Source: Patescibacteria group bacterium
GTDB lineage: Bacteria > Patescibacteriota > Patescibacteriia > 2-12-FULL-57-11
Assembly (NCBI GenBank): GCA_004297205.1
Contig: SCUL01000002.1
Coordinates: forward strand, 252,594 to 316,593
Length of the DNA stretch: 64,000 nt
Direction of reading: 5' to 3'
Position numbers and translations under genes: made by a program. Of the stretch, positions 13,499 through 64,000 are shown one piece after another; position 1 is the stretch's first letter, and each line of letters opens with the position of its first letter. Below the pieces are notes generated by a model. It was not told where the DNA came from and ran no database searches. It saw only the letters and a program-made list of their open reading frames with translations.

Positions 13499-13520
13499 GG
13501 GGGAGGGGGGGAAGTCCGTC

Positions 13521-13549
13521 AGTATGGGACCTCCGGCGCCATCGGTCAA
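13521..13549 (-). promoter_or_regulatory. candidate internal promoter (TTGACC-17-CATACT) upstream of dehydrogenase gene
   Basis: On minus strand TTGACC (13549-13544, overlapping upstream stop) 17-nt spacer CATACT (13526-13521). Confidence 0.25.
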
Positions 13550-47493: not shown

Positions 47494-47522
47494 ACTATAC
47501 GGTTTCCGTGTGAAATTAGCAA
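47494..47522 (-). promoter_or_regulatory. sigma70 promoter (TTGCTA-17-TATAGT) for the sigma / anti-sigma / giant-protein operon
   Basis: Minus strand TTGCTA (47522-47517), 17-nt spacer, TATAGT (47499-47494); ~60 nt upstream of GTG 47434 in AT-richer divergent region. Confidence 0.55.
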
Positions 47523-47590
47523 AAGGCGGTGTGCCTTTATGCAGTTGGGATACGGTATGCGGCATCAAACGCTTGCATTATCCACATCAT

Positions 47591-47612
47591 TTGTATACGC
47601 TTGTGTATACAA
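47591..47612. promoter_or_regulatory. perfect palindromic operator candidate TTGTATAC-N6-GTATACAA
   Basis: 8-bp perfect inverted repeat (47591-47598 / 47605-47612) ending 4 nt before ATG of the HTH gene and overlapping its candidate -10 (TACGCT 47596-47601; -35 TTGCAT 47573-47578). Confidence 0.5.
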
Positions 47613-47616
47613 ACAC

Positions 47617-47952
47617 ATGTCGACGCCTGATCGCATCATCCGCGTTTCCGTCTCCGAAGCCGCCCGCCTCTTTGGCGTGAGCATGCAGACGGTCCGCCGC
47701 GCCATAGCCGACAAGGAGGTCCTCTATGTGGTCGTGGGAAACCGCTACAAGATCAATTTCGAGAGCCTGGTCACCTGGTCCCAGCGCTCCGTCACGGTCC
47801 GCAATAAAACCGAACGCCGCGGTATCGGACAATTCGTCCAAGCCTGGCGGATCCGCAACACCCGCTACTCGCCCAACCCACAGATGTTCACCCCGCCGCC
47901 GGGTCCGGCGGCCCGCCGCGGCAACGGCGACGAAACGGGCTCCGTGAAGTAG
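47617..47952 (+). CDS. helix-turn-helix DNA-binding protein, excisionase/MerR-like HTH_17 family
   Basis: MSTPDRIIRVSVSEAARLFGVSMQTVRRAIADKEVLYVVVGNRYKI... (HTH excisionase-family pattern); start at ATG 47617 (first part of track ORF lies in promoter region). Confidence 0.6.
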   Translation: MSTPDRIIRVSVSEAARLFGVSMQTVRRAIADKEVLYVVVGNRYKINFESLVTWSQRSVTVRNKTERRGIGQFVQAWRIRNTRYSPNPQMFTPPPGPAARRGNGDETGSVK

Positions 47953-47956
47953 GGGG

Positions 47957-47962
47957 TTGACA
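47957..47962 (+). promoter_or_regulatory. TTGACA -35-like box upstream of lipoprotein A (weak -10 GATGCT at 47980-47985)
   Basis: Perfect TTGACA immediately after HTH stop; -10 element poor, so promoter status uncertain. Confidence 0.25.
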
Positions 47963-48026
47963 CGATCGCTTTTTTAACCGATGCTGGCGTATCCCACGGC
48001 CGGCACGCGCCGGAGAAGGAGGATGT

Positions 48027-48809
48027 GTGGGGTTTCCCAGTTCTTTGATGTCGGCGGTCGGCGTTGCCGCCCCGCTGATGGCCATGGCCGCCCTGTCGGG
48101 CTGCGGACTGATCCTGGACCTCGATCCTTGGCCGCCCGCGCCGCCCGATGCGAGCGCCGGCGTGGACGGCGGTGATATCGACGCGGCCGTCGACGGCGGT
48201 CCGGACGGGATGCGCGACGCGTTCCTTCCGGACGCGCCCGCCGACGCAACGGCAGATGCCGCGCTCGATGCCGGGATGTTCGATGCGGCGTCCGACGCGG
48301 ACGCTGGATCGGACGATGCGGGAACGGACGCCGACGCCGGTCCGCCCGAAGGGTGCGCGGACGACTCGATCGAGCAGCACTATCCGGTCGATCCGGGAAC
48401 GGGACTGCTCGTCATGGTCGGCTGCGACGGCGCTCGCACGCAATGCGAGGCCGAAGAGCTGTGCGCACCGGGCTGGCGGCTTTGCACGTTCGCCGCGTAT
48501 CGGACGCGCGGCGGGACGACGATGCCCGCCACCGCCCGCCGCTGGCTTGCGGGCTGCGTCCGCGAAATGTGCGGGGACGTGACGGGTCCGGGAACGGCGG
48601 TCTGCGCAAGCTGCGCGACCGGGACCGGCACCACGCTCGAGCTGTCGTACCAGTGCGGCAGCGGAGAACCGGCGCGATCGGAAGACGATTGCAATGTCGG
48701 CATTGCGGCCGCGCCCGACGACTGGCACCTGGTCTCCCGTTCGCTGGAATGCATCATGGCCAGCGCCGAACCGGCCTCCGACCTCGGTGGAGCCACCTGC
48801 TGCCGCTGA
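48027..48809 (+). CDS. secreted lipoprotein, uncharacterised Cys-rich family (paralogue A)
   Basis: GTG start with AAGGAGG RBS (48016-48022); lipobox ...AALSGC; Asp/Ala/Gly/Pro-rich linker; C-terminal ~150-aa domain with ~12 conserved Cys (...VGCDGARTQCEAEELCAPGWRLCTFAAYRTRGG...ATCCR). Confidence 0.7.
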   Translation: MGFPSSLMSAVGVAAPLMAMAALSGCGLILDLDPWPPAPPDASAGVDGGDIDAAVDGGPDGMRDAFLPDAPADATADAALDAGMFDAASDADAGSDDAGTDADAGPPEGCADDSIEQHYPVDPGTGLLVMVGCDGARTQCEAEELCAPGWRLCTFAAYRTRGGTTMPATARRWLAGCVREMCGDVTGPGTAVCASCATGTGTTLELSYQCGSGEPARSEDDCNVGIAAAPDDWHLVSRSLECIMASAEPASDLGGATCCR

Positions 48810-48828
48810 GCGACTGGAATCACCGTGC

Positions 48829-48866
48829 CGCCCGCCCGTATCAACGGTCGGGCGCTTCTTTTTGCC
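48829..48866 (+). terminator. rho-independent terminator of lipoprotein A
   Basis: CGCCCGCCCG-tatcaa-CGGTCGGGCG stem (one G.U) followed by CTTCTTTTT. Confidence 0.7.
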
Positions 48867-48869
48867 GGG

Positions 48870-48898
48870 TTGACAAAATCCGGAAAAAGCGCTATATT
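48870..48898 (+). promoter_or_regulatory. consensus sigma70 promoter TTGACA-17-TATATT for lipoprotein B
   Basis: TTGACA 48870-48875, exact 17-nt spacer, TATATT 48893-48898; transcript would start ~48905 with a 5'-terminal stem-loop AATACCGC-agtgaaac-GCGGTATT (48909-48932). Confidence 0.7.
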
Positions 48899-48987
48899 CC
48901 AGCGTCCGAATACCGCAGTGAAACGCGGTATTGCGGCCAAACTTCGGGTCCATTCAGGTTCCCCAACGTCAACCCCAAGGAGCAGGA

Positions 48988-49842
48988 ATGCCCCTCCACC
49001 GTCTCGTTCTTTCCCTCGTCATCCTCACGGTCGCCACCCCCGGATGCATGCTCGACCGCAGCGGACTCGCGTACAACTGTGAGGCCCGCCTCATGGACGA
49101 CGCGGCGCTGCACACGGACGGCGCCATCCCCGGATGGTGCCTGGACCGTCTCCGCGACGGCTCCACAGCCGACGCCGGGGCGCCCCCGGACGCAGGTCCG
49201 GAAGACGGCGGCGATGCGGGAGACGCGGAGCTGCCCGACGCCGGACCGTCCGACGCCGGAACGGATGCCGGCAGAGATGCCGGACCGGAAGACGGCGGAC
49301 CGCCTGACAGCGGCCCTCCCGACGCCGGACCGCCGGATGCGGGACCGTCCGACGCCGGAACGGATGCCGGCAGAGATGCCGGACTCCCCCCTGTCGGCTG
49401 CGACGACGGCACGGTCGAACAACCGTACGTCGGCCGCGACGACATGGTCGGCTGCGACGGCGCGCTGACACAGTGCGAGGCCGCGGCGCTGTGCGGCGCA
49501 GGCTGGCATCTGTGCACCTTCGCCGAGTACCGGACCCGCGGCGGGGCCGTCGCTCCGGCGACGACCTACCGCTGGCTGGCGGGCTGCACGCGCGAGATGT
49601 GCGGCGGGCTGGTCGGTCCGGGAACGGCGGTCTGCGCGAGCTGCGCGCCGGGCACGGGTACGTCGATCGACGTCTCGTATGACTGCAGCGCGTCCCGCGC
49701 GCACGCCGAGGCCGCCTGCAATCAGGGGATCACGGCGGATACCGATCCGATCGGTAACCACCTTGTCTCCCCCGCGCTCGAGTGCGTCCGGGCCCGGATC
49801 TTCCCGGCAGCCATGACGCTCGGCGCAACGTGCTGCAGGTAG
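48988..49842 (+). CDS. secreted lipoprotein, uncharacterised Cys-rich family (paralogue B)
   Basis: ATG 48988 with AAGGAG RBS (48977-48982); lipobox LTVATPGC; DAG-repeat linker (PDAGPSDAGTDAGRDAG...); conserved C-terminal Cys-rich domain ending ATCCR. Confidence 0.75.
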   Translation: MPLHRLVLSLVILTVATPGCMLDRSGLAYNCEARLMDDAALHTDGAIPGWCLDRLRDGSTADAGAPPDAGPEDGGDAGDAELPDAGPSDAGTDAGRDAGPEDGGPPDSGPPDAGPPDAGPSDAGTDAGRDAGLPPVGCDDGTVEQPYVGRDDMVGCDGALTQCEAAALCGAGWHLCTFAEYRTRGGAVAPATTYRWLAGCTREMCGGLVGPGTAVCASCAPGTGTSIDVSYDCSASRAHAEAACNQGITADTDPIGNHLVSPALECVRARIFPAAMTLGATCCR

Positions 49843-49849
49843 GCACGGC

Positions 49850-49896
49850 CCCGGTTCGACGCATCGACAGCGATGCGCGGACCGGGTCATTTTTTT
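49850..49896 (+). terminator. rho-independent terminator of lipoprotein B
   Basis: Long imperfect hairpin (inner CGCATCG-acag-CGATGCG, outer CCCCGGTTCG/CGGACCGGG) followed by ATTTTTTT. Confidence 0.75.
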
Positions 49897-49957
49897 CGAC
49901 CCTTCCCCTTTTGCGCGGCGCCCGCTAGGGTGGCCGTGCGTGCCCAACGGAGGATGC

Positions 49958-50671
49958 ATGCGAACTCTCACCTCTGCGCTCCTGCTCCTGATGGCAGCCG
50001 GCGCAGGCCCCGGCTGCTCGCTCATCACGAATCCCGACACGAGCCGCCTGTACCCGCATCCGCGGGAGGACGGCGGAGCGGCCGATGCCGGACCGCACTC
50101 TGACGCGGATGTCGACGGCTCTTTGCCGCCGACGGATGCCGACCTGCCGGACGCGGACCTTCCGCCTCCGCCCGACGCCGACGTGCCGCCCGCGGACACG
50201 GGCGTCCCCGCCGGCCCCGGCTGCCTGGATGGGACGGTGGATCAGCCCTACCCCGGCCGCAGCGACATCGTCGGCTGCGACGGCGCGGTCGACCAGTGCG
50301 CGGCTTCCGCCCTGTGCGGCGCCGGCTGGCATCTCTGCGGCTGGGACGAATTCCAGACGCGGACGGGCGCCGCCACCGCCACGACCGTCCGCTGGATCGC
50401 CGGCTGCGCACGGGAGGCATGCTCGCTCGATCCGATGCGGGTCCGCGAAGGTGTCTGCGGCGACTGCACCTCAGGAGGAGCGATGCTGCCGATGGCCGTG
50501 TCGTTCGCCTGCAGCGGTGCCTCGCCGCCGCGCGAGGAGATCAGTTGCGACGTCGGCGTCGTGGCCTTCACCGACCCGATCGGTCGCCGTATCGGCAGCA
50601 CGACCGCACCGTGCCTCCGGGCCGAGGCGTTCCCGACGCGAGAGCGCTACGGCGCTACCTGCTGCAGATAG
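49958..50671 (+). CDS. secreted lipoprotein, uncharacterised Cys-rich family (paralogue C)
   Basis: ATG 49958 with GGAGG RBS (49949-49953); lipobox AGAGPGC; Asp/Pro/Ala-rich linker; conserved Cys-rich domain (...IVGCDGAVDQCAASALCGAGWHLCGW...ATCCR). Confidence 0.75.
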   Translation: MRTLTSALLLLMAAGAGPGCSLITNPDTSRLYPHPREDGGAADAGPHSDADVDGSLPPTDADLPDADLPPPPDADVPPADTGVPAGPGCLDGTVDQPYPGRSDIVGCDGAVDQCAASALCGAGWHLCGWDEFQTRTGAATATTVRWIAGCAREACSLDPMRVREGVCGDCTSGGAMLPMAVSFACSGASPPREEISCDVGVVAFTDPIGRRIGSTTAPCLRAEAFPTRERYGATCCR

Positions 50672-50672
50672 C

Positions 50673-50723
50673 AAAAACCCCGACTCCAACATCGCAGGAT
50701 GTCGGAGCCGGGGAATCTTTTTT
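50673..50723. terminator. bidirectional rho-independent terminator shared by lipoprotein C (+) and gene 50725-52500 (-)
   Basis: Hairpin CCCCGACTCC...GGAGCCGGGG with extended inner stem, flanked by AAAAA (50673-50677) and TTTTTT (50718-50723). Confidence 0.75.
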
Positions 50724-52503: not shown

Positions 52504-54621
52504 CTATCGAACGGCCACGGCAGTCGAGCCCAGCTCGGCGGCCAGAGTGAGGTCGCGGGTGAACACCAAGATGTCACGCGAATTGTTGTTGTCGACGTCG
52601 GTCACGGTCACGCTGATCCCGGCGGTATTGCGCCGGTCCAGGGCGAAGAATCCTTGGCCGCGCGGCGTGCCCGTTCCCGAAAAGACGCGCACGTGCGGGC
52701 CGCCGCCGGGTCCCGCGCCGGTCACGATCTCGGCGCGCCCGTCGCCGGTCAACTCTCCCACGGCCACCGAGATGCCGCCGCGGAAACGCGGATCATAGGC
52801 AAAGAAGCCGCGGTCGCGCACCCGCCCGTCGCCGGAGAAGACGCGCACGTGCGGGCCGCCGCCGGGTCCCGCGCCGGTCACGATTTCCTCCTTCCCTTCG
52901 CCGTCCAGGTTGCCGACGGCCACGGACGCGCCGCCGGGAAAACGCGGATCATAGGCGTGGAAGGGCGGCGCCGCTTCCCGACCATCGAGCGACCAGATGC
53001 GGATGAGCGCATTGCCGGTCGTGGCCGGCGCAGTCACGATTTCTTTGGCACCGTCGCCCGTGACGTCGCCGACCGCGATGTTGATGCGCCCGCTGAGTTT
53101 GTCGCCGTAGGGCAGAAGATTCGCGCTGCGTCCGTTGGCCAAGAGGATGCGCACGCGGCGGCCGTCGGTGCCGACCACGTCGGCGGCGCCGTCGCCGTCC
53201 AGGTCCGTGCGGATGACCGTCTCCCCCGCCCCGAACCGCGCATCGGAGACGAAGAAGCCGTTGCGCAACGTCACCCCTTCGCGGTTGAACATGCGGGTGA
53301 AGGCGCCGTTCGGGAACGTGCCGCCGGTGACGTCTTCGAGCGGCTTGCGCAGGATGACGGCGTCGCGCGCTACGAGCCGCACCTCGTCCACGATGCTGCC
53401 GTCGTTCACGCGCGGATCCTGGGTGCCGCGCAGTTTCTCGAAGTCACCGCCCAGCGCCACGGTCTTGGCCGCGCCGCCGGCGTTCACGACCGCCGCGCCG
53501 CGCTCGAAGTCGCGCCGCCAGACGCCGGCTGCGAAATTGCCGGAGGCGCCGTCGACGCGCCGCGCACTGCCCACCGCCCGGCCGAGATTGGCGTCGTATT
53601 CGTCGTAGTAAAACCACTGGCCGTGATCCTGGTCGCCGTAGTCATAAGAGAAGTAGGCGTCGTTCAGGAGCGCGCTGGCCAGCCCGAAGCGCATGTTGCC
53701 GTACTCGGTGAACCGTCCGGTGTTGCCGGTGTTGCTGTTCAGGATCGGCACGGCCGGCGGAATGCCGCCGCGCGCCGTGCGTTGGATCTGCTGCTGGGTC
53801 AACGTCCAGTCGCCTTTGGGAAAATTTTCGAACAGCTGTCCCTGGACGTCGGCGTAGTACATCGGCCCGTCGTTTTGGAACACATAATAGTCGGGGTCGA
53901 GAACCTCACGGGCACGGCGGTAGATCTGCCGGAGCCCCTCCTGCCAGGCGCGGTTGGCGTCGGCCGCGGTCTCGTTGCGCCCGTCGCCGTCCAGATCCAC
54001 CGGACCGTGGGCGAAGTAGGTGATGTCGTCCCAGCCGTTGTCGAAGAAGACGCCGTCCCACATGCCGGAGGACATGACCTCCTCCTTCACGAAACGCGGC
54101 AGCACGTCCTGCCAGCGCTCCCCGTTTGCTGCAGGCGAGCGATTCGTGACGTTCAGAATCCAGGTGCCGGGCCAGAAGGTCCGCCGGTTCCCGCCCGCAT
54201 CCTTGAGATACCACGATTGCTGAATGCGGTTCGCGAGCTTGGCGCGCAGCGGCGCAGAATCCGAAAGCTGCGCGGCATCGGTGCGGATTTCTCCGGCCGT
54301 GATGTAGGCGAGGATGACGACGTCCGGGTTGCGGCGGCGGATCTCGCGCAGCATCTCCGGCGAGCGCTCCTGCAGTTCCATGTCGAGGATGAGCAGGTCC
54401 CAGCGCGCGAGTTCGCGCGCGTCCAGCTCGTCGATCGTCCAGTGCAGGTAGTAGTTGGCGATCTTGGGTGAAGCGTGCGCCGACAGCGCCGCGACCGCGG
54501 TGCGCGGGACGGCGGCGGCAAGCACGGCCACGAGCAGCAGCGATCCCAAAACACGCGAAGCGCCGGAACGGGCTTCGCGTGTCTGCGGGCGGCGGGGTTC
54601 AGTGGGCCTGGACGTCGCCAT
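52504..54621 (-). CDS. secreted glycoside-hydrolase-like (TIM-barrel, GH114/GHL-type) protein with C-terminal FG-GAP/VCBS repeats
   Basis: Signal peptide; N-domain with YYLHW...WDLLILDME...VILAYITAGE... pattern resembling GH114-like endo-glycosidases; C-terminal repeated GDG..EIVTGAGPGGGPHVRVF and DLDGDGAADVV (FG-GAP). Confidence 0.5.
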   Translation of the reverse strand: MATSRPTEPRRPQTREARSGASRVLGSLLLVAVLAAAVPRTAVAALSAHASPKIANYYLHWTIDELDARELARWDLLILDMELQERSPEMLREIRRRNPDVVILAYITAGEIRTDAAQLSDSAPLRAKLANRIQQSWYLKDAGGNRRTFWPGTWILNVTNRSPAANGERWQDVLPRFVKEEVMSSGMWDGVFFDNGWDDITYFAHGPVDLDGDGRNETAADANRAWQEGLRQIYRRAREVLDPDYYVFQNDGPMYYADVQGQLFENFPKGDWTLTQQQIQRTARGGIPPAVPILNSNTGNTGRFTEYGNMRFGLASALLNDAYFSYDYGDQDHGQWFYYDEYDANLGRAVGSARRVDGASGNFAAGVWRRDFERGAAVVNAGGAAKTVALGGDFEKLRGTQDPRVNDGSIVDEVRLVARDAVILRKPLEDVTGGTFPNGAFTRMFNREGVTLRNGFFVSDARFGAGETVIRTDLDGDGAADVVGTDGRRVRILLANGRSANLLPYGDKLSGRINIAVGDVTGDGAKEIVTAPATTGNALIRIWSLDGREAAPPFHAYDPRFPGGASVAVGNLDGEGKEEIVTGAGPGGGPHVRVFSGDGRVRDRGFFAYDPRFRGGISVAVGELTGDGRAEIVTGAGPGGGPHVRVFSGTGTPRGQGFFALDRRNTAGISVTVTDVDNNNSRDILVFTRDLTLAAELGSTAVAVR

Positions 54622-55822
54622 AGATGCGCATCAACCGCTCGTAATGCAGTTCCGGAGAGAATTGTGCCATCCTTTGGCGGGCCTTCTCCCCGGTCTGCGC
54701 GAGCATGGTCTCATCCTGCGCACACCGGCGGATGGCGTCAACCCAGCGCGGTACGTCGTCCGGCGGCAGCAGGATGCCACTGACGCCGTCCTCGATGATC
54801 TCGGGGATGCCGCCGGTGGACGACGCCAGAACGGTTTTGCCGAGCGCCATGGCTTCGAGCACGGCATACGGGAAATTTTCGAACCAGCGCGACGGCACCA
54901 GCACCATCCGCGCACCGGCAATCGCCGCGTACAACTCCTTCCCGGACAGGAAGCCGGAGAAAAAGACGTTCTTCAGGCCGTGCATCGCAACGGCATCCTT
55001 CAGCTCGCGCTCCAGCGGTCCGGCGCCGATGAAACGAAACGGCAGGTCCGGCAGCGCGGCCGCCATGTCCAACATGTTCTTCACGCCTTTTTCTTCCGAG
55101 AGACGCCCCGCGTAGACGATCTCGCCGCCGACCCGGGGGGCGATGCCGACAAACGATGTCGGATCAATGAAGTTCGGCACGTGACGGATGCGGGAAAGGT
55201 CCTTACCCCAGCGTTCCAAAAGATTGCGGAGGAAAGCGCTCGGCGTCACGGCCAGGGCGACGTCGCGTTCGTACCAACGGCCGAGGCGATGAATCGTCAT
55301 CTCCACGGCAGCAAGCGCCGAGGCGGCGCGCGAGTCGGAAACGCAGCGGTGGGCCACGGCGTTCCAATATTTGTAGACGTGACAGCGTTCGCACGGCGCT
55401 TCTTCCGTATAGAGCTTGTAGTTCGGACAGATCCACTTGAAGTCGTGGACCGTCCAGACCACCGGTATCCCCTCGCGCTTCAGCACGGACAGGATCGACG
55501 GCGAGAGGTGGTGGTAGATGTTGTGGAGATGGGCGACGTCTGGCCGGAATTCGCGCAGCAATGCGCGCAGCTTGGCGGCCGCTTCGCGCGACCAGATCAT
55601 GTTGGCGGCCTTCTCGATGTCGGCGCCGATCCCGTTGCGGCGGTCATACTGGCGCTCGTTCACGAAGAAACGGCTCCACGGCGTCGGCACGTTCTCCGGA
55701 TGCTGCATGGCGAACGGCACCACTTCGTGCCCTTTGCTGGTCAGCAACCGTGACAGATCGAACACGTACCGCTCGGCGCCGGCGCGGACGTAGTGATACT
55801 TGTTGATTTGCAAAATCTTCAT
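54599..55822 (-). CDS. glycosyltransferase family 4 (GT4)
   Basis: Start MKILQINKYHY at 55822 (ATGA overlap); ...VLVPSRWFENFPYAVLEAMALGKTVLASSTGGIPEII (E-x7-E). Confidence 0.75.
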   Translation of the reverse strand: MKILQINKYHYVRAGAERYVFDLSRLLTSKGHEVVPFAMQHPENVPTPWSRFFVNERQYDRRNGIGADIEKAANMIWSREAAAKLRALLREFRPDVAHLHNIYHHLSPSILSVLKREGIPVVWTVHDFKWICPNYKLYTEEAPCERCHVYKYWNAVAHRCVSDSRAASALAAVEMTIHRLGRWYERDVALAVTPSAFLRNLLERWGKDLSRIRHVPNFIDPTSFVGIAPRVGGEIVYAGRLSEEKGVKNMLDMAAALPDLPFRFIGAGPLERELKDAVAMHGLKNVFFSGFLSGKELYAAIAGARMVLVPSRWFENFPYAVLEAMALGKTVLASSTGGIPEIIEDGVSGILLPPDDVPRWVDAIRRCAQDETMLAQTGEKARQRMAQFSPELHYERLMRIYGDVQAH

Positions 55823-57063
55823 ACGCGCGGCGGCGGCAGTTGCGCGAGCACCGCTTCCAGCGCCTCCACGGAGCGCTCCCAACGCCAGTGCTCCTCGGCG
55901 TAGCGGCGGACGGCGGTCCGGCGGTTGACCCGCTCGGCTTCCGGCAGGGCCAGGAAGGCGCTCATGGCGCGCGCCAAAGATGCGGTGTCGACAGCGTCGG
56001 CGACGTAGGCGGGATTGATCGGTCCGAGGATTTCCGGCGTGGCGCCGACCGGCGTCCCCACGACCGGCAAACCGGAGGCCAGCGCTTCGAGCGTCGTCAG
56101 CCCCAAACCTTCGTAGGCGATGGTCGGCAGCACGTAGAGGTCGGCGGCGCCGTAGAAGTCGGCGAGCCGTCCGACCGGAATGCTGCCGATCAGCCGCACC
56201 ACATGCTCGGCCTTCTTCTGGCGAATCAGATTTTTCAGCTTGGCCTCGTCCGGCCCGCTGCCGCCGATCAAGCAGATGAGCTTGGGGTTTTTCTGGCGCG
56301 CCGCGATGCAGGCGTCGATCAGAAGCGGCAGGCCCATGCGCGGCACCAGCCGGCGGACGCTGAAGATCACATCCGCGTCCTCCGGAATGCCAAGGTGGAT
56401 GCGCAGCGCCCGGCGGCTCGGCCGCGGCGCGAAGGCGACGAGGTCCACGCCGCCGGGAATCTCCTGCGCTTTACCGGCCACGTCCGGATAGGTTTCCCCA
56501 AGCAGCTGGACCGAAAATCGGGACAGCGTGAGGATGCGCTCAGAGCGGGACAGCGCCCTGTGTTCGTTGGCTTTGGTGATGGCGAGCTGGAGCGGCGCCC
56601 CGAAGATGCCGATGATCTTGCCGAGCAACGAACGGGAGATGCTGCCGAACTTCCGATCGAGCTGCAATTCCTTATAGACGGAAGCATGGAAGAGGTACAC
56701 CGCAGGAAAGGCCCGGCTGTAGGCGGAACGGAAGTAGCCGGCGCCGGGAAACGGATGGTGCAGGATGACGGCGTCCGGCAGCCACTCCGTGAGCAGCGCC
56801 TCGAAGGCCTTGGGGACGGCCAACAGATCGACGAAACTCTTGCCGATGAGTTTGCGCAGCAATGGACGGCCGTAGCGGATGACGCGCACGCCGTCGATCG
56901 TTTCCTCGGCCGGCAGATCGGCCCGGTCGCGGTGGACGAGAACGACCACCTGATGCCCGCGCGCCGCCAACAACCGGGCATGTTCGGCCACGACACGCTC
57001 ACTTCCCCCGAAGGTGTCGGGAAAGTACAGCTGGCTGATGATCAGGATCTTTTTGGCCTCCAT
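55819..57063 (-). CDS. glycosyltransferase family 4 (GT4)
   Basis: Start MEAKKILIISQLYFPD at ATG 57063 (track ORF begins at TTG 57084); ...YVLPTIAYEGLGLTTLEALASGLPVVGTPVGATPEIL. Confidence 0.75.
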   Translation of the reverse strand: MEAKKILIISQLYFPDTFGGSERVVAEHARLLAARGHQVVVLVHRDRADLPAEETIDGVRVIRYGRPLLRKLIGKSFVDLLAVPKAFEALLTEWLPDAVILHHPFPGAGYFRSAYSRAFPAVYLFHASVYKELQLDRKFGSISRSLLGKIIGIFGAPLQLAITKANEHRALSRSERILTLSRFSVQLLGETYPDVAGKAQEIPGGVDLVAFAPRPSRRALRIHLGIPEDADVIFSVRRLVPRMGLPLLIDACIAARQKNPKLICLIGGSGPDEAKLKNLIRQKKAEHVVRLIGSIPVGRLADFYGAADLYVLPTIAYEGLGLTTLEALASGLPVVGTPVGATPEILGPINPAYVADAVDTASLARAMSAFLALPEAERVNRRTAVRRYAEEHWRWERSVEALEAVLAQLPPPRV

Positions 57064-57105
57064 AGATCGCATCCATGGTATCAAAAACCGCCGAAGTTCG
57101 CTCAG

Positions 57106-57158
57106 AATAAAAAAGGCGGTCGGGAGGGAGAGCGGTCGAAACCACTCCCCTCCCGACC
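57106..57158 (-). terminator. rho-independent terminator of the giant Cys-rich repeat gene
   Basis: Minus-strand hairpin GGTCGGGAGGG...CCCTCCCGACC (57118-57158) followed by UUUUUUAUU (plus 57106-57114 AATAAAAAA). Confidence 0.7.
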
Positions 57159-57209
57159 AGTCGCGTCAGCGTCCCAGGGGCATCTGGAACGCCGCGCGTG
57201 TACGCGCGA

Positions 57210-60200
57210 CTACGGGCAGACGACCCCGTTGTCGATCACTCCGTTGCAGTCGTCGTCGAGCCCGTTGCACACCTCGGCGGATCCGAAGGTGCTGGGGCTG
57301 CAGGGGCCGTAACCGGATCCGTCCGCGAAGCACGTCGTCGTGCCCGCGGCGCAGACGCCCGGCATGCCGGTGCTGCAGGAGAGACCGGCGCCAGCGGTGC
57401 AGGCGACACAGGTCTCGTCGACCATGCCGTTGCAGCTGTCGTCGATCGCGTTGCCGCACACCTCGGGGTTCCCGCCGGTCAGCAGCACGCACGGTCCGTA
57501 CCCGCTGCCCGAGGGCAGGCAGGTGGACTCGCCGCGCGCGCAGATCCCGGTGAGGCCCGTGGCACAGTTGATGACCGTGCCGGGCGTGCAGGAGGCGACG
57601 TCGTCGGTGACGCCGTTGCAGTCGTCGTCGGTACCGTTGCTCGGGATCTCCGAGACGGGACCGGCGACCGGCAGGCAGGCCGTGAACGACCGCCCGTCGG
57701 GACGGCAGGTCATCGAGCCCATGGTGCAGAGTCCGAGCAGGCCCGTGAGGCAGCTCTCGCTCAGACCCGGGGTGCAGACGCACCCCTCGTCCGCGGTGCC
57801 GTCGCAATCCGAGTCGATCCCGTCACCGGGGCACGTCTCGGGCAGCGGGGCGACCGTCGGGGTGCACGGCGTCCAGCTGCGACCGCTGTCGCAGGTCTGG
57901 ATGCCGGTGCTGCAGGCGCCGTCGAGGCCCGTCGTGCACGCGCGGCTCGCGCCGCTCGTGCAGAGGCAGCCATCGTCGGCGGTGCCGTCGCAGTCCGAGT
58001 CGAGCCCGTCGCCGCACAGGTCCGAGCTCGGACCGGTGGTCGACGTGCAGTGGCTCCAGCCGCGGCCGTCCGCGTCGCAGGTCTGCGTCCCGGCGGAGCA
58101 CACGCCCGGCAGCCCCGTGGGGCAGCCGCGCGTCGTTCCACCGATGCAGGTGCAGACCTCCTCGTCCGCGTTGGCGTCACAGTCGTTGTCGACGCCGTCG
58201 CAGACTTCGGAGGTGGGTCCCGTCGCGCCGACGCAGGGGCCGTAGCCCCGGCCGTCGGAACGGCAGGTGTGGGTGCCCGCGCCGCAGGCGCCGGCGAGGC
58301 CCGTGCTGCACGCCTCGGTCAGACCGGGGGTGCAGCTGCAGACCTCTTCGTCGGCGAATCCATCGCAGTCGTCGTCGAGGCCGTTGCAGGTCTCGCCGGT
58401 CGAGGGGATGGTCGGCAGGCAGGCCGTGAAGCCGCGCCCGCCGGCGATGCAGGTCATGATGCCCGCGCTGCAGACGCCCGGGAGCCCCGTGAGGCAGCCC
58501 GCACTCACGCCAACGGCGCAGGTGCAGACCTCCTCGTCGGCCGGACCGTCACAGTCGTCGTCGACCCCGTTGCAGGTCTCGGACGACGGCGCGATTCCCG
58601 GCAGACAGGGACCCCAGGTGAGGCCCGCCGCGCAGGTTTGGAGACCCGTGCTGCAGACGCCGGACTGGCCCGTCAGGCAGGAGCGCGTGGCCCCGGCCGT
58701 GCAGGAGCAGCCCTCGTCCGCGGTGCCGTCGCAGTCGTTGTCCGCACCGTCGGCGCAGACGTCGACCGTGGGGGCCGTCGTCGGCAGGCAGGTGCCCCAG
58801 CCGCGTCCGTCGCCGGAGCACGTCTGGAGGCCCGCGGCGCAGGCGCCGGGCAGGCTCGTGATGCAGCCGCGCGTCGTGGAGGCGGTGCAGGTGCACACCT
58901 CCTCGTCGGCGAGGCCGTCGCAGTCGTTGTCGCTGCCGTCGCAGATCTCGGAGCTCGGTCCCGCCGAAGGCAGGCACGGGCTCCAGGTGCGTCCGGCGTC
59001 GCAGGTCTGCGTGCCGGTGCCGCAGACGCCGAGCCGCTCCGTGTCGCACGTCCGGGTCACCCCGGGCGTACAGGAGCAGCCCTCGTCCGCCTCACCGTCG
59101 CAGTCGTTGTCGAGGCCGTCCGCGCAGACGTCGACGCTCGGCGCGCTCGTCGGCGTGCAGGGGCCGAAGCCCCGCCCGTCGGCGTCGCAGCGCTGGGTGC
59201 CGGCCGCGCACACGCCCGGCAGCGACGTCACGCAGGCGCGCGGCGCGAGGGGGGTGCAGGTGCACACGTCCTCGTCCGCGATCCCGTCGCAGTCGTCGTC
59301 CCGGCCGTTGCAGACCTCGAGGGTGGCGACGCCCGTCGGGATGCAGGCATCCCAGCGGCCGCCGGTGCAGGCCTGGAGGCCCGCGCTGCAGACGCCGTCG
59401 AGGCCGCTCGTGCACGGACGGCTCGCGCCGCTCGTGCAGGTGCAATCCTCGTCGGCGGTGCCGTCGCAGTCGGTGTCGAGGCCGTCGCCGCAGGCGTCCG
59501 CGGAGCGGACGAAGCCGCTCAGGCAGGCGCCCCAGCCGCGTCCGTCGCTGTCGCAGGTCTGGGTGCCGGCCGCGCAGCTGCCGGGCTGACCGGTGTCGCA
59601 GGCGCGCGTCGTCCCCGCGGGGCACGCGCACACCTCCTCGTCGGCCGTCCCGTCGCAGTCGTCGTCCTGGCCGTTGCAGACCTCGGCCGAACCCGCGGCG
59701 CCGGGGAGGCAGGCCGTGAAGCCGCGTCCCCCGCTCACGCAGGTCATGGTCCCGCCGGCGCAGACGCCGGCCAGGCCCGTGAGGCAGCTCGCGGAGGCGC
59801 CGACGGTGCAGGTGCACACGCCGTCGTCGTCCGCCAGCCCATCACAGTCGTTGTCGATGCCGTCGCAGATCTCGAGGCTCGGACCCGCCGAAGGCAGGCA
59901 CGGGCTCCAGATGCGTCCGGCATCGCAGGTCTGCGAGCCGCTGCTGCACGCGCCGAAGAGTCCCGTCAGACACGACTGGCTTGCGCCCGCCGTGCACGAG
60001 CACCCCTCGTCCGCGCTGCCGTCGCAGTCCGAGTCGACGCCATCGCCGCAGATGTCCACGGTGGGAGCGAGGCTCGGGATGCAGGCGTTCCAGCCGCGGC
60101 CATCACTGGCGCACGTCTCGACGCCCGCGCTGCAGAGACCGGGCAGCGACGTCACGCAGGGGCGGGTCGAGAGGCGCGTGCAGGTGCACACTTCCTCGTC

Positions 60201-62438
60201 GGCCGTCCCGTCGCAGTCGTTGTCGATGCCGTCGCACGTCTCCGTGCTCGACGCCACCGTCGGGGTGCAGGGACCCCACTCGAGTCCGTCGGTGCAGGCC
60301 TGGGTGCCGGCGGAGCAGGCGCCCGGGAGCGTCGTCACGCACGTCCGGCTCGCGCCGGGCGCGCAGTCGCAGCCCTCGTCCGCGGTGCCGTCGCAGTCCG
60401 AGTCGACGCCGTCGGCGCAGACGTCCGGGGAGGACGCCGTCGTCGGCAGGCAGGGGCTCCAGCCGCGGCCGTCGCCGTCGCAGGTCTGCTCGCCGGCGGC
60501 GCAGACGCCGCCGAGACCGCTCAGGCAGCCGCGGGTGGCGAAGGGCGTGCAGTCGCACACCTCCTCGTCCGCGACCCCGTCGCAGTCGTCGTCGACGCCG
60601 TTGCACGTCTCGGCGACGCTCCCGCTCGTGGGGAGGCAGTCGCCGTACATGCGGCCGTCGGCCGTGCAGGTCCGCGTTCCCGCGCTGCAGCGCCCAGGGA
60701 GGGTGCTGACGCAGGTGATCACGTCGCCGGGAGCGCAGGTGCACCCCTCGTCGGCCGTGCCGTCGCAGTCGCTATCCACGCCGTCTCCGCAGACGTCGGG
60801 GAAGGCCAGCCAGGGCCAGATGAACGGCTCGCACGGACTCCAGCCGCGGCCGTCGGCGCTGCAGAACTGGGTGCCGTCGGCGCACTCGCCGAAGAACCCG
60901 GTCACGCAGAGGCGGAAGTCGAAGGGCGTGCAGGTGCACACCTCCTCGTCGGCCGTCCCGTCGCAGTCGTTGTCGATGCCGTCGCAGGTCTCGGACGTCG
61001 GTCCGGACGTGGACAGGCAGGGACCCCAACCGCGGCCGGAGGCGTCGCAGGACTGGGTGCCCGCGGCGCACTGGCCGAACGAACCGCTCGCGCAGGCGCG
61101 GCTCGAGAGCGGCGTGCAGTCGCACACCTCCTCGTCCGCGGTGCCGTCGCAGTCGTTGTCCAGTCCGTCGCAGACCTCGGAGCCCGGACCGCTCGTCGGC
61201 AGGCACGGCGTGTAGCCGCGGCCGCCGTCGGCGCAGGTCTGGGTGCCGGTGGCGCAGACGCCGTCCTCGCCGCTGAGGCAGCTGCGGGTGGCGCCGGGCG
61301 TGCAGTCGCACACGTCGTCGTCATCCGCGATGCCGTCGCAGTCGTCGTCGACGCCGTTGCAGCGCTCGGGGCTCGGGACGTTCAGCGACAGGCAGGTGCC
61401 GTAGCTGCGTCCGTCGCTGGAGCACCGCTGCTCGCCGATGTCGCAGGCGCCGGGGATGCCGCTGTGGCAGGACCGGATGTCTCCGGGCATGCAGTCGCAC
61501 ACCTCCTCGTCCGCCGTTCCGTCGCAGTCGTTGTCGAGACCGTCGCAGGTCTCGGGGCTCGCGCCCAGGTCCGGGATGCAGTGGCCCCACACCGAGTCGG
61601 TGCAGGTCTGCAGGCCGCCGGCGCACTCGCCCGGGAGCGGAGAGACGCACGGTCGGCTCGCGCCGCTCGTGCACTCGCAGCCCTCGTCGGCCGTGCCGTC
61701 GCAGTCGTTGTCGACGCCGTCGTCACAGACCTCGTCGGACTCCGTCACCGTGGGCAGGCAGGGACCGAAGCCTCGGCCCGCCGCGGTGCAGGTCTGCGTG
61801 CCGGTGCGGCACGCTCCCGCGAGTCCCGTCAGGCAGCTGCGCGCCGACCCCGCCGAACACTCGCAGACGTCCTCGTCCGCGATGCCGTCGCAGTCGTTGT
61901 CGATGCCGTCGCAGGTCTCCGCGGATTCGCGCGCGCTCGGCAGGCACTCCGTGAAGGAGATGCCGTCCGGGCGGCAGCGCATCGTGCCGAGCGCGCAGGC
62001 GCCGGGCAGATCCGTGATGCAGGGCTCGGTCACGCCGGGGTCGCAGCTGCACCCCTCGTCGACCATGCCGTTGCAGTTGTTGTCCCTTCGGTCGTCGCAG
62101 ATCTCGATCTCGTCGCCGCACAGGCAGTCGATGTGATCGTCGATCTGACCGTCGCAGTCGTTGTCGACCGCGTCGCAGACCTCGCCGCTGGGCAGGCCCT
62201 CGCCGACGCAGTGGCCCCACGTGCCGTCCGGCGCGCAGAGCCGCACCCCGTTGGTGCACTGACCGAGCCCGCCGTACCCGCTGCAGATCCCGGTGATGCC
62301 CGGAACGCAGTCGCCGGACGGCGGCACGCCGCCGTCAGGACTAGGAATGAAGACGTTGGTGTCTCCCTCCTGGGTCGTACATCCGCTGAAGATGCCGAGC
62401 AGCACGCCGAGCGCGATCGCCCGACAGGTGTTGCTCAT
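57210..62438 (-). CDS. giant lipoprotein (1742 aa) composed of ~30 tandem MopE-like Cys-rich putative metal/Ca-binding repeats
   Basis: Start MSNTCRAIALGVLLGIFSGC (lipobox) at 62438 with GGAGG RBS (62443-62447); repeat unit ~55 aa: C.C.PG..R.C..G..G.C..G.Q.C...G..W..C.P.....E.CDG.DNDCDG.ADE; upstream 81 in-frame codons are Arg-rich and lack RBS. Confidence 0.8.
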   Translation of the reverse strand: MSNTCRAIALGVLLGIFSGCTTQEGDTNVFIPSPDGGVPPSGDCVPGITGICSGYGGLGQCTNGVRLCAPDGTWGHCVGEGLPSGEVCDAVDNDCDGQIDDHIDCLCGDEIEICDDRRDNNCNGMVDEGCSCDPGVTEPCITDLPGACALGTMRCRPDGISFTECLPSARESAETCDGIDNDCDGIADEDVCECSAGSARSCLTGLAGACRTGTQTCTAAGRGFGPCLPTVTESDEVCDDGVDNDCDGTADEGCECTSGASRPCVSPLPGECAGGLQTCTDSVWGHCIPDLGASPETCDGLDNDCDGTADEEVCDCMPGDIRSCHSGIPGACDIGEQRCSSDGRSYGTCLSLNVPSPERCNGVDDDCDGIADDDDVCDCTPGATRSCLSGEDGVCATGTQTCADGGRGYTPCLPTSGPGSEVCDGLDNDCDGTADEEVCDCTPLSSRACASGSFGQCAAGTQSCDASGRGWGPCLSTSGPTSETCDGIDNDCDGTADEEVCTCTPFDFRLCVTGFFGECADGTQFCSADGRGWSPCEPFIWPWLAFPDVCGDGVDSDCDGTADEGCTCAPGDVITCVSTLPGRCSAGTRTCTADGRMYGDCLPTSGSVAETCNGVDDDCDGVADEEVCDCTPFATRGCLSGLGGVCAAGEQTCDGDGRGWSPCLPTTASSPDVCADGVDSDCDGTADEGCDCAPGASRTCVTTLPGACSAGTQACTDGLEWGPCTPTVASSTETCDGIDNDCDGTADEEVCTCTRLSTRPCVTSLPGLCSAGVETCASDGRGWNACIPSLAPTVDICGDGVDSDCDGSADEGCSCTAGASQSCLTGLFGACSSGSQTCDAGRIWSPCLPSAGPSLEICDGIDNDCDGLADDDGVCTCTVGASASCLTGLAGVCAGGTMTCVSGGRGFTACLPGAAGSAEVCNGQDDDCDGTADEEVCACPAGTTRACDTGQPGSCAAGTQTCDSDGRGWGACLSGFVRSADACGDGLDTDCDGTADEDCTCTSGASRPCTSGLDGVCSAGLQACTGGRWDACIPTGVATLEVCNGRDDDCDGIADEDVCTCTPLAPRACVTSLPGVCAAGTQRCDADGRGFGPCTPTSAPSVDVCADGLDNDCDGEADEGCSCTPGVTRTCDTERLGVCGTGTQTCDAGRTWSPCLPSAGPSSEICDGSDNDCDGLADEEVCTCTASTTRGCITSLPGACAAGLQTCSGDGRGWGTCLPTTAPTVDVCADGADNDCDGTADEGCSCTAGATRSCLTGQSGVCSTGLQTCAAGLTWGPCLPGIAPSSETCNGVDDDCDGPADEEVCTCAVGVSAGCLTGLPGVCSAGIMTCIAGGRGFTACLPTIPSTGETCNGLDDDCDGFADEEVCSCTPGLTEACSTGLAGACGAGTHTCRSDGRGYGPCVGATGPTSEVCDGVDNDCDANADEEVCTCIGGTTRGCPTGLPGVCSAGTQTCDADGRGWSHCTSTTGPSSDLCGDGLDSDCDGTADDGCLCTSGASRACTTGLDGACSTGIQTCDSGRSWTPCTPTVAPLPETCPGDGIDSDCDGTADEGCVCTPGLSESCLTGLLGLCTMGSMTCRPDGRSFTACLPVAGPVSEIPSNGTDDDCNGVTDDVASCTPGTVINCATGLTGICARGESTCLPSGSGYGPCVLLTGGNPEVCGNAIDDSCNGMVDETCVACTAGAGLSCSTGMPGVCAAGTTTCFADGSGYGPCSPSTFGSAEVCNGLDDDCNGVIDNGVVCP
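57300..62100 (-). repeat. tandem ~165-nt coding repeats (MopE-like Cys-rich modules) inside giant gene
   Basis: Recurrent nucleotide blocks (e.g. gtcgtcgaggccgttgcagacctcgg / ccgtcgcagtcgttgtc) mirroring protein repeats; boundaries approximate. Confidence 0.6.
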
Positions 62439-62783
62439 TCTGCCTCCCATGTTCATGTTCCTCCGCAGTAGTCGTTTTGGCCTCCATACCGGCGATGCCC
62501 GCGCCGGCGTGAAGGACGTTGTCTCCGGATTGTCAACCTGGCGCTTTCCCGCATGGGCCAGACGTCGCCTCTGCCGCGTTCCCGACATGCGGAACGCGGT
62601 GAACATCGCTGCCTGACGCCGGCCGAGGGGGAAAGTCGAATCCTCAGCCGCCGTCTTCAGGGATGCTGCAAATCCGGGCAAATACAGAACCCGAACGAAC
62701 GCGGCACCTCACCAAAATCCTGGGCTTTTGTCAACCCTTATGTAACGAGCTACTGAGATTCCCCCGCCAGGCGGGGGAATGAC

Positions 62784-62838
62784 AAAAAAATGAACTCCGG
62801 ATCAGCGACCTCCCCAGGGGGAAGTCTCCGATCCGGAG
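62784..62838 (-). terminator. rho-independent terminator of lipoprotein gene 62868-63524
   Basis: Minus-strand hairpin CTCCGGATC...GATCCGGAG (62795-62838, with inner CCCC/GGGG pairing) followed by UUCAUUUUUUU (plus A-run 62784-62790). Confidence 0.65.
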
Positions 62839-62867: not shown

Positions 62868-63524
62868 CTAGCGACCGACGACGAACGACCAGTTGCGGCC
62901 GCCGCCTTCGGTGATGCCGACGACCGCGACGGCGTCGGTGCGGTCGATGTCCCACACCGAGTCGCAGTTGCGGTCCTCGCTCACGAAGAGCGTGCCGCGC
63001 GTCTGCACGGCGCCGTGCTCGTCGAGTCCGACGCCCCAGACCTCGCTGCCATCGGCGGTCTCGCCGTAGGCGTTGAAGTCGACGCGGTCGCCGACCGGGA
63101 CGCGGTCGAGGCGGCAGACGACGGTGCCGGTGTCGGACGAGCACTCGCCGTCCATGCCGACGAACCGCTCGACGATGCACGCACCGCCTGGACGACAGCC
63201 CTGGACCTGCGCATAGCGGAGGTCGAGGTCGCTGCGCCAGTAGAAGCGCACGCGGGTGGTGCCCGCGGCGCATCCGCTGACGGGCGGCGGGGCGACCGGG
63301 CCGCTGTCCGCCGCGGGACGCGGCCCGGCGTCGGCGACGGGAGCGGGGCCCCCGTCCGCCGGCCAGCAGTCCTGGTCGGCCTCGTTGAGGTAGCCGTCGC
63401 CGTCGTCGTCGACGGTGTTGTTGCAGACCTCGCGCGGCTCCGGTCCGTCGCCGGTGCTGTCGGCGTCGTAGCAGCCGGCGATGCTGGTGAGAAGAGCGAA
63501 CGAGAGCGTGAGAGAGGTGCGCAT
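62868..63524 (-). CDS. small lipoprotein with N-terminal MopE-like putative metal-binding motif
   Basis: Signal/lipobox LLTSIAGCY; motif CNNTVDDDGDGYLNEADQDC; GGAG RBS ~10 nt upstream of ATG 63524; overlapping track ORF 62731-63606 is Arg-rich junk. Confidence 0.7.
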   Translation of the reverse strand: MRTSLTLSFALLTSIAGCYDADSTGDGPEPREVCNNTVDDDGDGYLNEADQDCWPADGGPAPVADAGPRPAADSGPVAPPPVSGCAAGTTRVRFYWRSDLDLRYAQVQGCRPGGACIVERFVGMDGECSSDTGTVVCRLDRVPVGDRVDFNAYGETADGSEVWGVGLDEHGAVQTRGTLFVSEDRNCDSVWDIDRTDAVAVVGITEGGGRNWSFVVGR

Positions 63525-63577: not shown

Positions 63578-63606
63578 TTTATATCAGAAATCGCCACCCC
63601 TGTCAA
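63578..63606 (-). promoter_or_regulatory. near-consensus sigma70 promoter TTGACA-17-TATAAA for lipoprotein 62868-63524
   Basis: Minus strand TTGACA (63606-63601), 17-nt spacer, TATAAA (63583-63578); ~45-nt leader to ATG 63524. Confidence 0.65.
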
Positions 63607-63702: not shown

Positions 63703-64000
63703 TCACGACCAGCGGCCGCAGTCCTCGTCGGCCGCGTCGTTGCGACCGTCGCCGTCGTTGTCGACACCGTCGTTGCAGCGCAGCTCGCGCGTGCTGCTCG
63801 AGGTGTTGACGCAGACGTTCGGCCATCCCGACGAGTCGTAGCACGGCTCGCAGGCGCCGGGGGCGAGCGTCGTCGGAGGCGTGTAGCCCCCCGACGGGAT
63901 GCTCGGCAGCGTGCAGGTGCTCCCGTTGATCTGGATCACCACGCCCCAGCCGGAGCGCAGGAAGATCGGCGAGAACGGCGTGCTGGTCTCCATGTAGGAG
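63703..64000 (-). CDS. secreted protein with C-terminal MopE-like motif, 3'-terminal fragment (start beyond window)
   Basis: Ends ...CNDGVDNDGDGRNDAADEDCGRWS* at 63703; frame open to window edge. Confidence 0.5.
   Translation of the reverse strand, partial: SYMETSTPFSPIFLRSGWGVVIQINGSTCTLPSIPSGGYTPPTTLAPGACEPCYDSSGWPNVCVNTSSSTRELRCNDGVDNDGDGRNDAADEDCGRWS

Follow-up and report, generated by a model that had tools for sequence, protein, structure and literature searches.

We analysed a stretch of 64,000 nucleotides from a Patescibacteria group bacterium (GenBank assembly GCA_004297205.1, contig SCUL01000002.1, positions 252,594 to 316,593 of the forward strand), referred to here as the window and numbered from its first letter. 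Towards its end, on the minus strand, the window carries a gene for a giant cysteine-rich predicted lipoprotein, which we take from the locus-tag numbering to be EPO33_02835. The gene is real and encodes a protein: the open reading frame (ORF) 57210–62681, which holds the ATG at 62438, is intact both in the ORF listing and in translation. A plus-strand ORF that overlaps the gene (57198–62471, 1757 amino acids) was rejected as an Ala/Arg/Gly/Val shadow frame typical of G+C-rich DNA. The gene comprises the following parts:

57210..62438, minus strand: coding sequence of the giant Cys-rich lipoprotein, 1742 amino acids from the ATG at 62438; stop codon at 57210–57212
62379..62438, minus strand: predicted signal peptide ending in the lipobox I-F-S-G-C (Cys20)
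57213..62312, minus strand: repeat array, residues 43–1742; an N-terminal partial module, then 27 units of 59–66 amino acids
57213..57842, minus strand: distal C-terminal 3.5 units, residues 1533–1742, with the variant loops DDDCNG and DDSCNG and one 6-Cys unit

The N-terminus reads MSNTCRAIALGVLLGIFSGC and has the signal peptide and lipobox with invariant Cys that define bacterial lipoproteins. The lipobox, already pointed out in the initial annotation, is borne out by two orthologs, whose N-termini also show a hydrophobic stretch and then a Cys (ending ...LVGLFSGC and ...LFCGIGC), and Cys20 would accordingly be the residue that is lipidated. Two further in-frame ATG codons lie upstream of 62438, at 62456 and 62450. 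Of the candidate starts only 62456 is shared by all four related loci, and the precursor may accordingly have 4–6 residues more than the 1742 given above. The choice among the three starts is ambiguous, yet the mature protein is identical whichever is used. After cleavage at Cys20 it has about 1,720 residues and consists solely of tandem modules. The composition is extreme: 220 Cys (12.6%; the first estimate had been about 240), 205 Asp and 75 Glu, that is, 280 acidic residues against 57 Arg and no Lys, with only 6 His and 11 Met among all 1742 residues.

Repeat architecture and conservation

The repeat unit is about 62 amino acids long and is composite: an acidic loop with four Cys is followed by a module of two predicted beta-hairpins with four more, and consecutive modules are joined by short Pro/Thr/Ser/Ala linkers such as LPTSGPTSE or TPTVASSTE. 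The motif D-x-[DS]-C-[DN]-[GA] occurs 27 times in the protein (28 with a looser pattern), the first interval being 88 residues and the later ones 59–66. The initial annotation had described some 30 units of about 55 residues, each with eight Cys; the tandem array stands, its dimensions become 27–28 units of about 62 residues, and the eight Cys are found exactly in 24 of the 25 full units that could be aligned. The remaining unit has six: C6 and C22 are both missing, a paired loss that recurs in both orthologs.

The loop, E-x-C-D-G-x-D-N-D-C-D-G-x-A-D-E, is nearly invariant across the repeats. In the alignment of 25 units, columns D10, C13, D18, C24, C32, G38, C40, G43, C47 and C57 are invariant, and C6, G8, D12, D14, G15, A17 and C22 are conserved in at least 90%; neither set includes a His or a Trp. 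C-x-C pairs are present in every unit. The Asp residues of the loop, proposed at the outset as ligands, hold on alignment well beyond this protein: in 228 family proteins with 4,895 instances of the motif, conservation is 99% for D10, 97% for D18, 92% for G15, 91% for E4, 82% for D12 and 77% for D14.

We found two orthologs of nearly identical length, P0001 (1744 amino acids, 84% identical) and P0002 (1743 amino acids, 66% identical). Because such orthologs exist, the gene is intact and not a frameshifted pseudogene. Units of the giant protein and of P0001 correspond one to one in the same order, and orthologous units are far more alike than paralogous ones; the sole break in this colinearity comes from the motif pattern merging two P0001 units. 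Among themselves, the units of the giant protein share 52% identity on average and 70% at most. At the DNA level Tandem Repeats Finder reports matches of 73–75% with periods of 186 nucleotides (one unit) and 366–369 nucleotides (two units), the latter because two unit subtypes partly alternate. Recent expansion, which repeat homogeneity had been proposed to reveal, is excluded by these values and by the colinearity with the ortholog: unit identities, Tandem Repeats Finder and the ortholog comparison gave no sign of expansion, homogenisation or frameshift decay. The array is thus old, with its length held constant.

Conservation is not even along the array. Between orthologs it peaks in the distal 3.5 units, with identities of 0.84–0.98 to P0001 and 0.76–0.87 to P0002, while the central units reach only 0.45–0.83 against P0002. 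This hints that the membrane-distal 3.5 units may form a functional or contact tip.

Membership of the PF11617 family

The sole Pfam family found in the giant protein is PF11617 (Cu-binding_MopE, “putative metal-binding motif”), which matches it in 17 stretches with E=7.6e-93 and 304.8 bits, against a gathering cut-off of 27 bits; a fragment of two units with three motifs scores 54.5 bits. The match covers only profile positions 14–30 of 30, and the N-terminal half of the full motif (D-x-D-G-D-G-Y-G) is absent. No Pfam family was found for the beta-hairpin half of the unit, nor any enzymatic or other recognisable binding domain in the protein. Against NCBIfam the whole protein gave no family at E<=10, which covers TIGR04201 and also TIGR02232, a family that had been suggested for it. 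The acidic double-disulfide repeat NF033662 has a cut-off of 41 bits, and a fragment of the giant protein scored 13.2.

The protein has many relatives. A word-indexed search scored 8,000 candidates, of which 2,596 proteins reached E<=1e-10; those with names are called “MopE-related protein”, “Putative metal-binding motif” or “hypothetical protein”. An exhaustive search with a one-unit profile found 15,386 cluster representatives at E<=0.001, 1,597 of them at E<=1e-30. These homologues align over the whole unit (profile positions 2–60) and reach 5,150 amino acids and 73 copies. Among the best 120, the median Cys content is 9.9%, periods are mostly 55–62 amino acids, and 44 have a lipobox-like N-terminus. 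The giant protein is therefore a typical member of a very large, computationally annotated family and not a new kind of system.

The same composite unit recurs at full length in thousands of PF11617 repeat proteins of 700–5,150 amino acids (“MopE-related” in NCBI), giant Cys-rich lipoproteins or secreted proteins known from Myxococcota, Bradymonadia, the Candidate Phyla Radiation (CPR) and many unclassified metagenomic bacteria. Within this family the subgroup of the giant protein has eight Cys and a period of about 62 residues, whereas elsewhere periods of 55–58 are commonest and six-Cys units occur. Many relatives carry PKD, VWA, fibrinogen_C, RCC1 or OmpA domains; the giant protein, in contrast, has no accessory domain and is wholly free of Lys.

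Cysteines, acidic loops and predicted fold

Cys counts per unit are even almost throughout the family, in 1,182 of 1,192 full-length units: 953 have eight, 209 six, 18 ten and two four. Together with the paired loss of C6 and C22, this leads us to expect disulfide pairs and not metal thiolates, and the eight Cys of each module would form four disulfides. A VKOR gene (L007:14306-14839) lies about 1.2 kb, or two genes, from P0004, a more distant homolog, and disulfide-forming systems with an adjacent VKOR have been reported to be widespread in CPR bacteria.

The acidic positions are spaced D-x-D-x-D-G-x-x-D and flanked by Cys predicted to form disulfides, as in thrombospondin type-3 repeats and teneurins. 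The PF11617 consensus has previously been aligned with the C-rich core of teneurins (PMC3278476), and a 1.5-A structure of that core has three Ca2+ on the matching acidic positions, two of them bound in a thrombospondin type-3-like manner (PMC9058538). Both known modules share the spacing C-x-D-x-x-D-N-D-x-D-G-x-x-D with the loop of the giant protein. In our own alignment, the teneurin positions C(0), D(+2), D(+5), D(+7), D(+9), G(+10) and D(+13) recur at the same intervals in those units of the giant protein that begin with C-x-D-G (for example C-G-D-G-V-D-S-D-C-D-G-T-A-D), and the teneurin-4 residues at those positions coordinate Ca2+ (PMC9058538). By this analogy the acidic loop may well bind structural Ca2+. 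The loops also differ: the giant protein has a Cys in place of the teneurin Gly at +8, lacks the second half of the teneurin motif (D-x-D-C-C), and continues into a beta-hairpin module that is absent from teneurin and thrombospondin. Pfam TSP_3, PDB sequences and Foldseek gave no significant match to thrombospondin type-3 or teneurin loops.

Structure prediction of a single repeat, suggested in the initial annotation, was carried out with AlphaFold2 using the internal repeats as the alignment. The predicted local distance difference test (pLDDT) score was 80.4 for one unit and 75.8 for three. In the models each unit starts with an irregular acidic loop, predicted with lower confidence, and continues into two beta-hairpins; the low confidence of the loop is as expected, since Ca2+ is missing from the model. 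In Foldseek searches of the PDB with both models the best E-values were about 1–2 and none was at or below 0.001, small disulfide domains being hard for the method; the PDB was also searched by sequence, using the whole protein, the unit profile, the concatenated motif and a two-motif fragment as queries, and nothing meaningful came back. As modelled, the unit has no recognisable relative among solved structures.

Promoter, leader RNA and terminator

The giant gene is monocistronic, a transcription unit of its own, delimited by these elements:

62706..62734, minus strand: promoter-like site, TTGACA, 14 nucleotides, then TGGTGAGGT (−35 and extended −10); kept in four loci
62457..62700, minus strand: conserved non-coding leader of about 245 nucleotides; minimum free energy −112.5 kcal/mol, z = −2.65
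62602..62667, minus strand: leader hairpin P1, with arms GACGGCGGCUGAGG / CCUCGGCCGGCGUC invariant in four loci and a variable loop
62574..62599, minus strand: leader hairpin P2, CCGCGTTCC-N8-GGAACGCGG; a hairpin in every locus, its sequence different each time
62488..62508, minus strand: leader hairpin P4, GCCGGCG-CGGGCAU-CGCCGGU, conserved
57109..57158, minus strand: intrinsic terminator, a G+C-rich stem of about 14 bp and T6; kept in three loci

The TTGACA at 62729–62734, from which a long leader with stable stem-loops had been postulated, is conserved in all four loci and is followed by TGnT(G/T)AGGT at the appropriate distance. The promoter pattern has this single match in the window, and none is expected by chance. 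The leader that follows is long and structured as envisaged, and the P2 hairpin lies where it had been placed. The leader has counterparts at L002:2218-2460, L003:18-267 (minus strand) and L001:9740-10003. The leader is much better conserved than the protein, with invariant runs of 40 nucleotides even against the locus whose protein is 66% identical. It is non-coding, because indels among the orthologs are not multiples of three; on this ground an extension from an upstream in-frame ATG (MFTAFRM...) was rejected. The 5' end of the leader is able to pair with the Shine-Dalgarno region, and at one position of this pairing four pair types are found in four sequences.

Rfam gave no match for the leader region at E<=1, nor for the leader in a scan of the whole window at the gathering threshold. 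A scan of a genome collection with the leader motif found no matches, and a scan of metagenomes found just two short Hainich groundwater contigs of the same lineage. The comparison of four related sequences, which is suggestive and not proof, makes the leader a candidate for a new cis-regulatory RNA.

After the stop codon of the giant gene comes the terminator at 57109–57158, which is strong. Between it and the first glycosyltransferase gene downstream there is an extended −10-like sequence, TG-n-TACCAT (57086–57093, minus strand), which is conserved at the aligned positions of L002 and L001; the glycosyltransferase genes may have a promoter of their own.

Upstream neighbours and lysine avoidance

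Two genes upstream of the giant gene encode proteins of the same type:

62868..63524, minus strand: 218-amino-acid acidic Lys-free lipoprotein (EPO33_02840, TAK04911.1) with one acidic loop, CNNTVDDDGDGYLNEADQDC
63703..64000, minus strand: last 98 codons of a gene for another PF11617 protein (at least 387 amino acids), running off the window

Both had been regarded as small proteins with single copies of the loop found in the giant repeats. The first does carry it, in a variant that lacks the central Cys (VDDDGDG); the second proves to be the C-terminal end of a considerably longer protein, which matches PF11617 positions 1–27. With the giant gene they make up a cluster of three PF11617-type proteins, so that the idea of a local family holds. 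Against NF033662 the neighbour proteins score 26.2, 32.9 and 29.3 bits, related but under its threshold. The 218-amino-acid protein is 51% identical to its L001 counterpart, and its gene has its own promoter (63578–63606, TTGACA-17-TATAAA) and its own terminator (62784–62838). The partial ORF at the window's end matches the upstream gene of L002 at 82%; we rejected it as an ortholog of the 759-amino-acid PF11617 protein of L001.

None of the three proteins contains Lys (the longer upstream one as read at L005:2-1165), whereas the other proteins of the window have about 2–4%. The orthologs P0001 and P0002 are likewise Lys-free. Protease resistance and escape from cross-linking are two possible reasons for avoiding Lys. 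This complete avoidance and the conserved structured leader are the most original by-products of our analysis.

Genomic context

The genes that follow the giant gene are shared with its orthologs:

55819..57084 and 54599..55882, minus strand: two syntenic family 4 glycosyltransferases (GT4), downstream of the giant gene
52504..54621, minus strand: GHL15 and FG-GAP protein (EPO33_02820) with an N-terminal hydrophobic segment, probably exported

The order giant gene, GT4, GT4, GHL15/FG-GAP gene and a gene for a 591-amino-acid membrane protein is kept in both long orthologous loci. A scan of the genome collection with the GHL15 protein found no matches. An operon with the glycosyltransferases was considered and rejected as an established fact, the terminator of the giant gene being conserved.

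The rest of the window (1–57084), mostly on the minus strand, is a single co-directional surface-glycan island. It includes three paralogous Wzy_C and TPR membrane proteins (35015–41615), a double GT4 (30629–32953), a Wzx-type flippase, a UDP-glucose dehydrogenase with an N-terminal CBS domain (11768–13837), an asparagine synthase, a DegT-like aminotransferase and a glycerophosphotransferase, as well as an extracytoplasmic function (ECF) sigma factor (46865–47434) and a DUF5667 protein (45684–46868; EPO33_02785). The more distant homologs P0003 and P0004 also adjoin Wzy_C, GT4 or sugar-nucleotide genes: at the P0003 locus the giant gene is followed by a smaller PF11617 gene and then by Wzy_C and GT4 (L006:14795-19256), and P0004 is surrounded by sugar-nucleotide genes.

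The host is an ultra-small CPR bacterium of groundwater. A myxobacterial origin, to which the names of distant matches had pointed, was rejected: proteins of the window are 100% identical to EPO33_02785, EPO33_02820 and EPO33_02840 of a Patescibacteria group bacterium, and the asparagine synthase of the window has its best named matches in Patescibacteria, Ca. Uhrbacteria and Ca. Giovannonibacteria. The contigs that carry the orthologs were recovered from Hainich groundwater, in its 0.1-um filter fraction. CPR genomes, in particular that of Ca. Peribacter riflensis, have been reported to encode large Cys-rich extracellular proteins and FG-GAP proteins and to invest heavily in surface sugars, and roles in rigidity or attachment were proposed (PMC4736985). 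The giant protein belongs to this class by its CPR host, its length above 1,000 amino acids, its signal peptide and its high Cys content, and it shares with the Peribacter proteins the nearby FG-GAP gene and the glycan investment. The comparison is one of descriptions, and it also shows differences: the Peribacter proteins have 7.2 +/- 2.4% Cys and form a 14-gene cluster, against 12.6% and a three-gene PF11617 cluster here.

Proposed role and alternative explanations

We propose, with a probability of roughly 0.55, that the giant protein is a lipid-anchored, disulfide-stapled, Ca2+-stiffened, strongly polyanionic rod that serves as a stalk or scaffold of the CPR cell surface and is tied to the surface glycan. 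The gene would be transcribed from its own promoter, through the structured leader of about 245 nucleotides, to its own terminator. Cleavage of the signal peptide and lipidation at Cys20 would leave an extracellular rod of about 1,720 residues anchored in the membrane. In each module the acidic loop would hold Ca2+ through its D-x-D-x-D-G-x-x-D spacing, and the eight Cys would pair into four disulfides; Ca2+ and disulfides together could make a stiff, protease-resistant, polyanionic filament projecting from the cell membrane. Such a filament would be a structural element of the cell surface, probably working with glycan made by the surrounding island, and its conserved C-terminal units might be presented as a contact tip. 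The matrix-scaffold role suggested in the initial annotation is thus plausible and gains support from the glycan-gene context; the metal-sequestering role suggested beside it is better recast as structural binding of Ca2+. A precedent for tandem Cys-rich extracellular repeats as a proposed rigid surface stalk is TraA of Myxococcus xanthus (TIGR04201), which differs in having an N-terminal PA14 head and a C-terminal MYXO-CTERM anchor, where the giant protein has an N-terminal lipid anchor and no head domain.

Several points weigh against this proposal. The likeness to teneurin and thrombospondin type-3 repeats is at the level of the motif only. Disulfide formation is an assumption, given that the groundwater habitat may be poor in oxygen. 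Pfam found no terminal adhesin domain in the giant protein. Since the gene has its own terminator, its link with the glycosyltransferases is one of synteny and not a demonstrated operon. Finally, full-text literature searches turned up no experimental study of the PF11617-type repeat family.

The linkers invite a different reading, in which their Pro, Thr, Ser and Ala residues are O-glycosylated and the giant protein is a mucin-like carrier of surface glycan and not a bare rod. Thr makes up 10.6% of the protein and Ser 7.9%, and the Wzy_C family includes protein O-oligosaccharyltransferases of the PglL/PilO type. The three Wzy_C and TPR proteins of the same island, the Wzy_C and GT4 genes after the giant gene of P0003 (with one smaller PF11617 gene between) and the sugar-nucleotide genes around P0004 would all suit it. 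Nevertheless, ligation or polymerisation of O-antigen is the more usual function of Wzy_C proteins, CPR bacteria have no known glycosylation sequon, and the giant gene is a separate transcription unit; we regard this explanation as unlikely.

The conserved tip could instead point to a dedicated adhesin for host attachment, the rod being a spacer and the distal C-terminal units binding a ligand on the host cell in an episymbiosis. Both the high conservation of these units and their altered loops are compatible with this, as are the attachment role proposed earlier for Cys-rich giants of CPR bacteria (PMC4736985) and the Cys-rich repeats that TraA uses as a proposed stalk. Yet Pfam identified no separate domain at the tip (a lectin, PA14 or Ig domain, for instance), and the tip might just as well be conserved as a folding nucleus or as a contact in assembly, which makes a dedicated adhesin quite improbable in our view. 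A more speculative picture combines several of these elements: a Ca2+-loaded, possibly O-glycosylated, Lys-free filament of the order of 100 nm by which an ultra-small episymbiont would contact its host cell or keep it at a fixed distance, with synthesis gated by the undescribed leader RNA, which would pair through its 5' end with the Shine-Dalgarno region and might sense a divalent ion or an envelope signal. We would give this picture little weight at present.

The family name suggests a MopE-like extracellular copper binder, whose repeats would each bind Cu or some other transition metal, either to take it up or to detoxify it. MopE and CorA of methanotrophs are indeed surface or secreted Cu(I) proteins that share the short PF11617 motif with the giant protein, and so many carboxylates would bind divalent cations non-specifically. 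The Cu(I) site of MopE/CorA, however, requires two His and a Trp-derived kynurenine in a beta-sheet domain, apart from a structural Ca2+ site, and PF11617, which spans only a small stretch of MopE, has been described as non-specific by specialists in copper proteins. Neither the PDB sequence searches nor Foldseek against the PDB found the MopE/CorA beta-sheet core in the giant protein, which matches the C-terminal part of the PF11617 profile only. The His-His-kynurenine site is also missing, as none of the 6 His and 11 Met occupies a conserved repeat position and there is no conserved Trp column. If the giant protein is to be likened to MopE/CorA at all, it is to their Ca2+ part. The proposed kinship with MopE thus survives as a Pfam motif match, and the copper binding assumed by analogy falls away; nothing supports MopE-type copper binding here, and transition-metal capture in general seems very unlikely. 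Least credible is a metallothionein-like thiolate sponge whose 220 reduced Cys would cluster Cu(I), Zn, Cd or Fe-S in anoxic groundwater: the Cys content, the C-x-C pairs of each unit and a possibly anoxic habitat would agree with it, but it runs counter to the even Cys counts in 99% of 1,192 units and the loss of Cys in pairs, to the fixed Cys spacing around conserved Gly and aromatic residues with predicted beta-hairpins (typical of disulfide modules and not of metallothioneins), and to the VKOR gene near a homolog together with the spread of disulfide systems in CPR bacteria.

CPR/Patescibacteria are a large, mostly uncultured share of bacterial diversity, and how they build their surfaces and attach to hosts is poorly understood; the class of large Cys-rich proteins was already pointed out in their genomes in 2016 (PMC4736985). 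The giant gene takes up about 0.6% of a contig of about 0.86 Mb and heads a glycan and surface island that extends across the 64-kb window, a heavy investment for so small a genome. The repeat family to which it belongs counts more than 15,000 sequence clusters under a misleading “copper-binding” name, and clean biochemistry of one fragment would re-annotate thousands of proteins.

Other features of the window

ARAGORN called a tRNA-Gly(CCC) of 80 nucleotides (4469–4548, minus strand) and a tRNA-Arg(TCG) of 94 nucleotides (34872–34965, plus strand). Both calls are probably false positives, because no tRNA was reported by the Rfam scan of the window at the gathering threshold and long ORFs enclose the second call. 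Two minus-strand ORFs within 47500–50700 (47865–48953 and 48892–50199) have no Pfam match and fail the third-position G+C filter.

Directly downstream of the ECF sigma factor and DUF5667 genes, on the same strand, lies a gene for a 1289-amino-acid protein rich in Thr, Ser, Gly and Val (41746–45615, minus strand). Its N-terminus bears a hydrophobic anchor or signal, Pfam gives no match, and G+C at first codon positions is unusually low (0.53); it is probably a major surface or S-layer-like protein.

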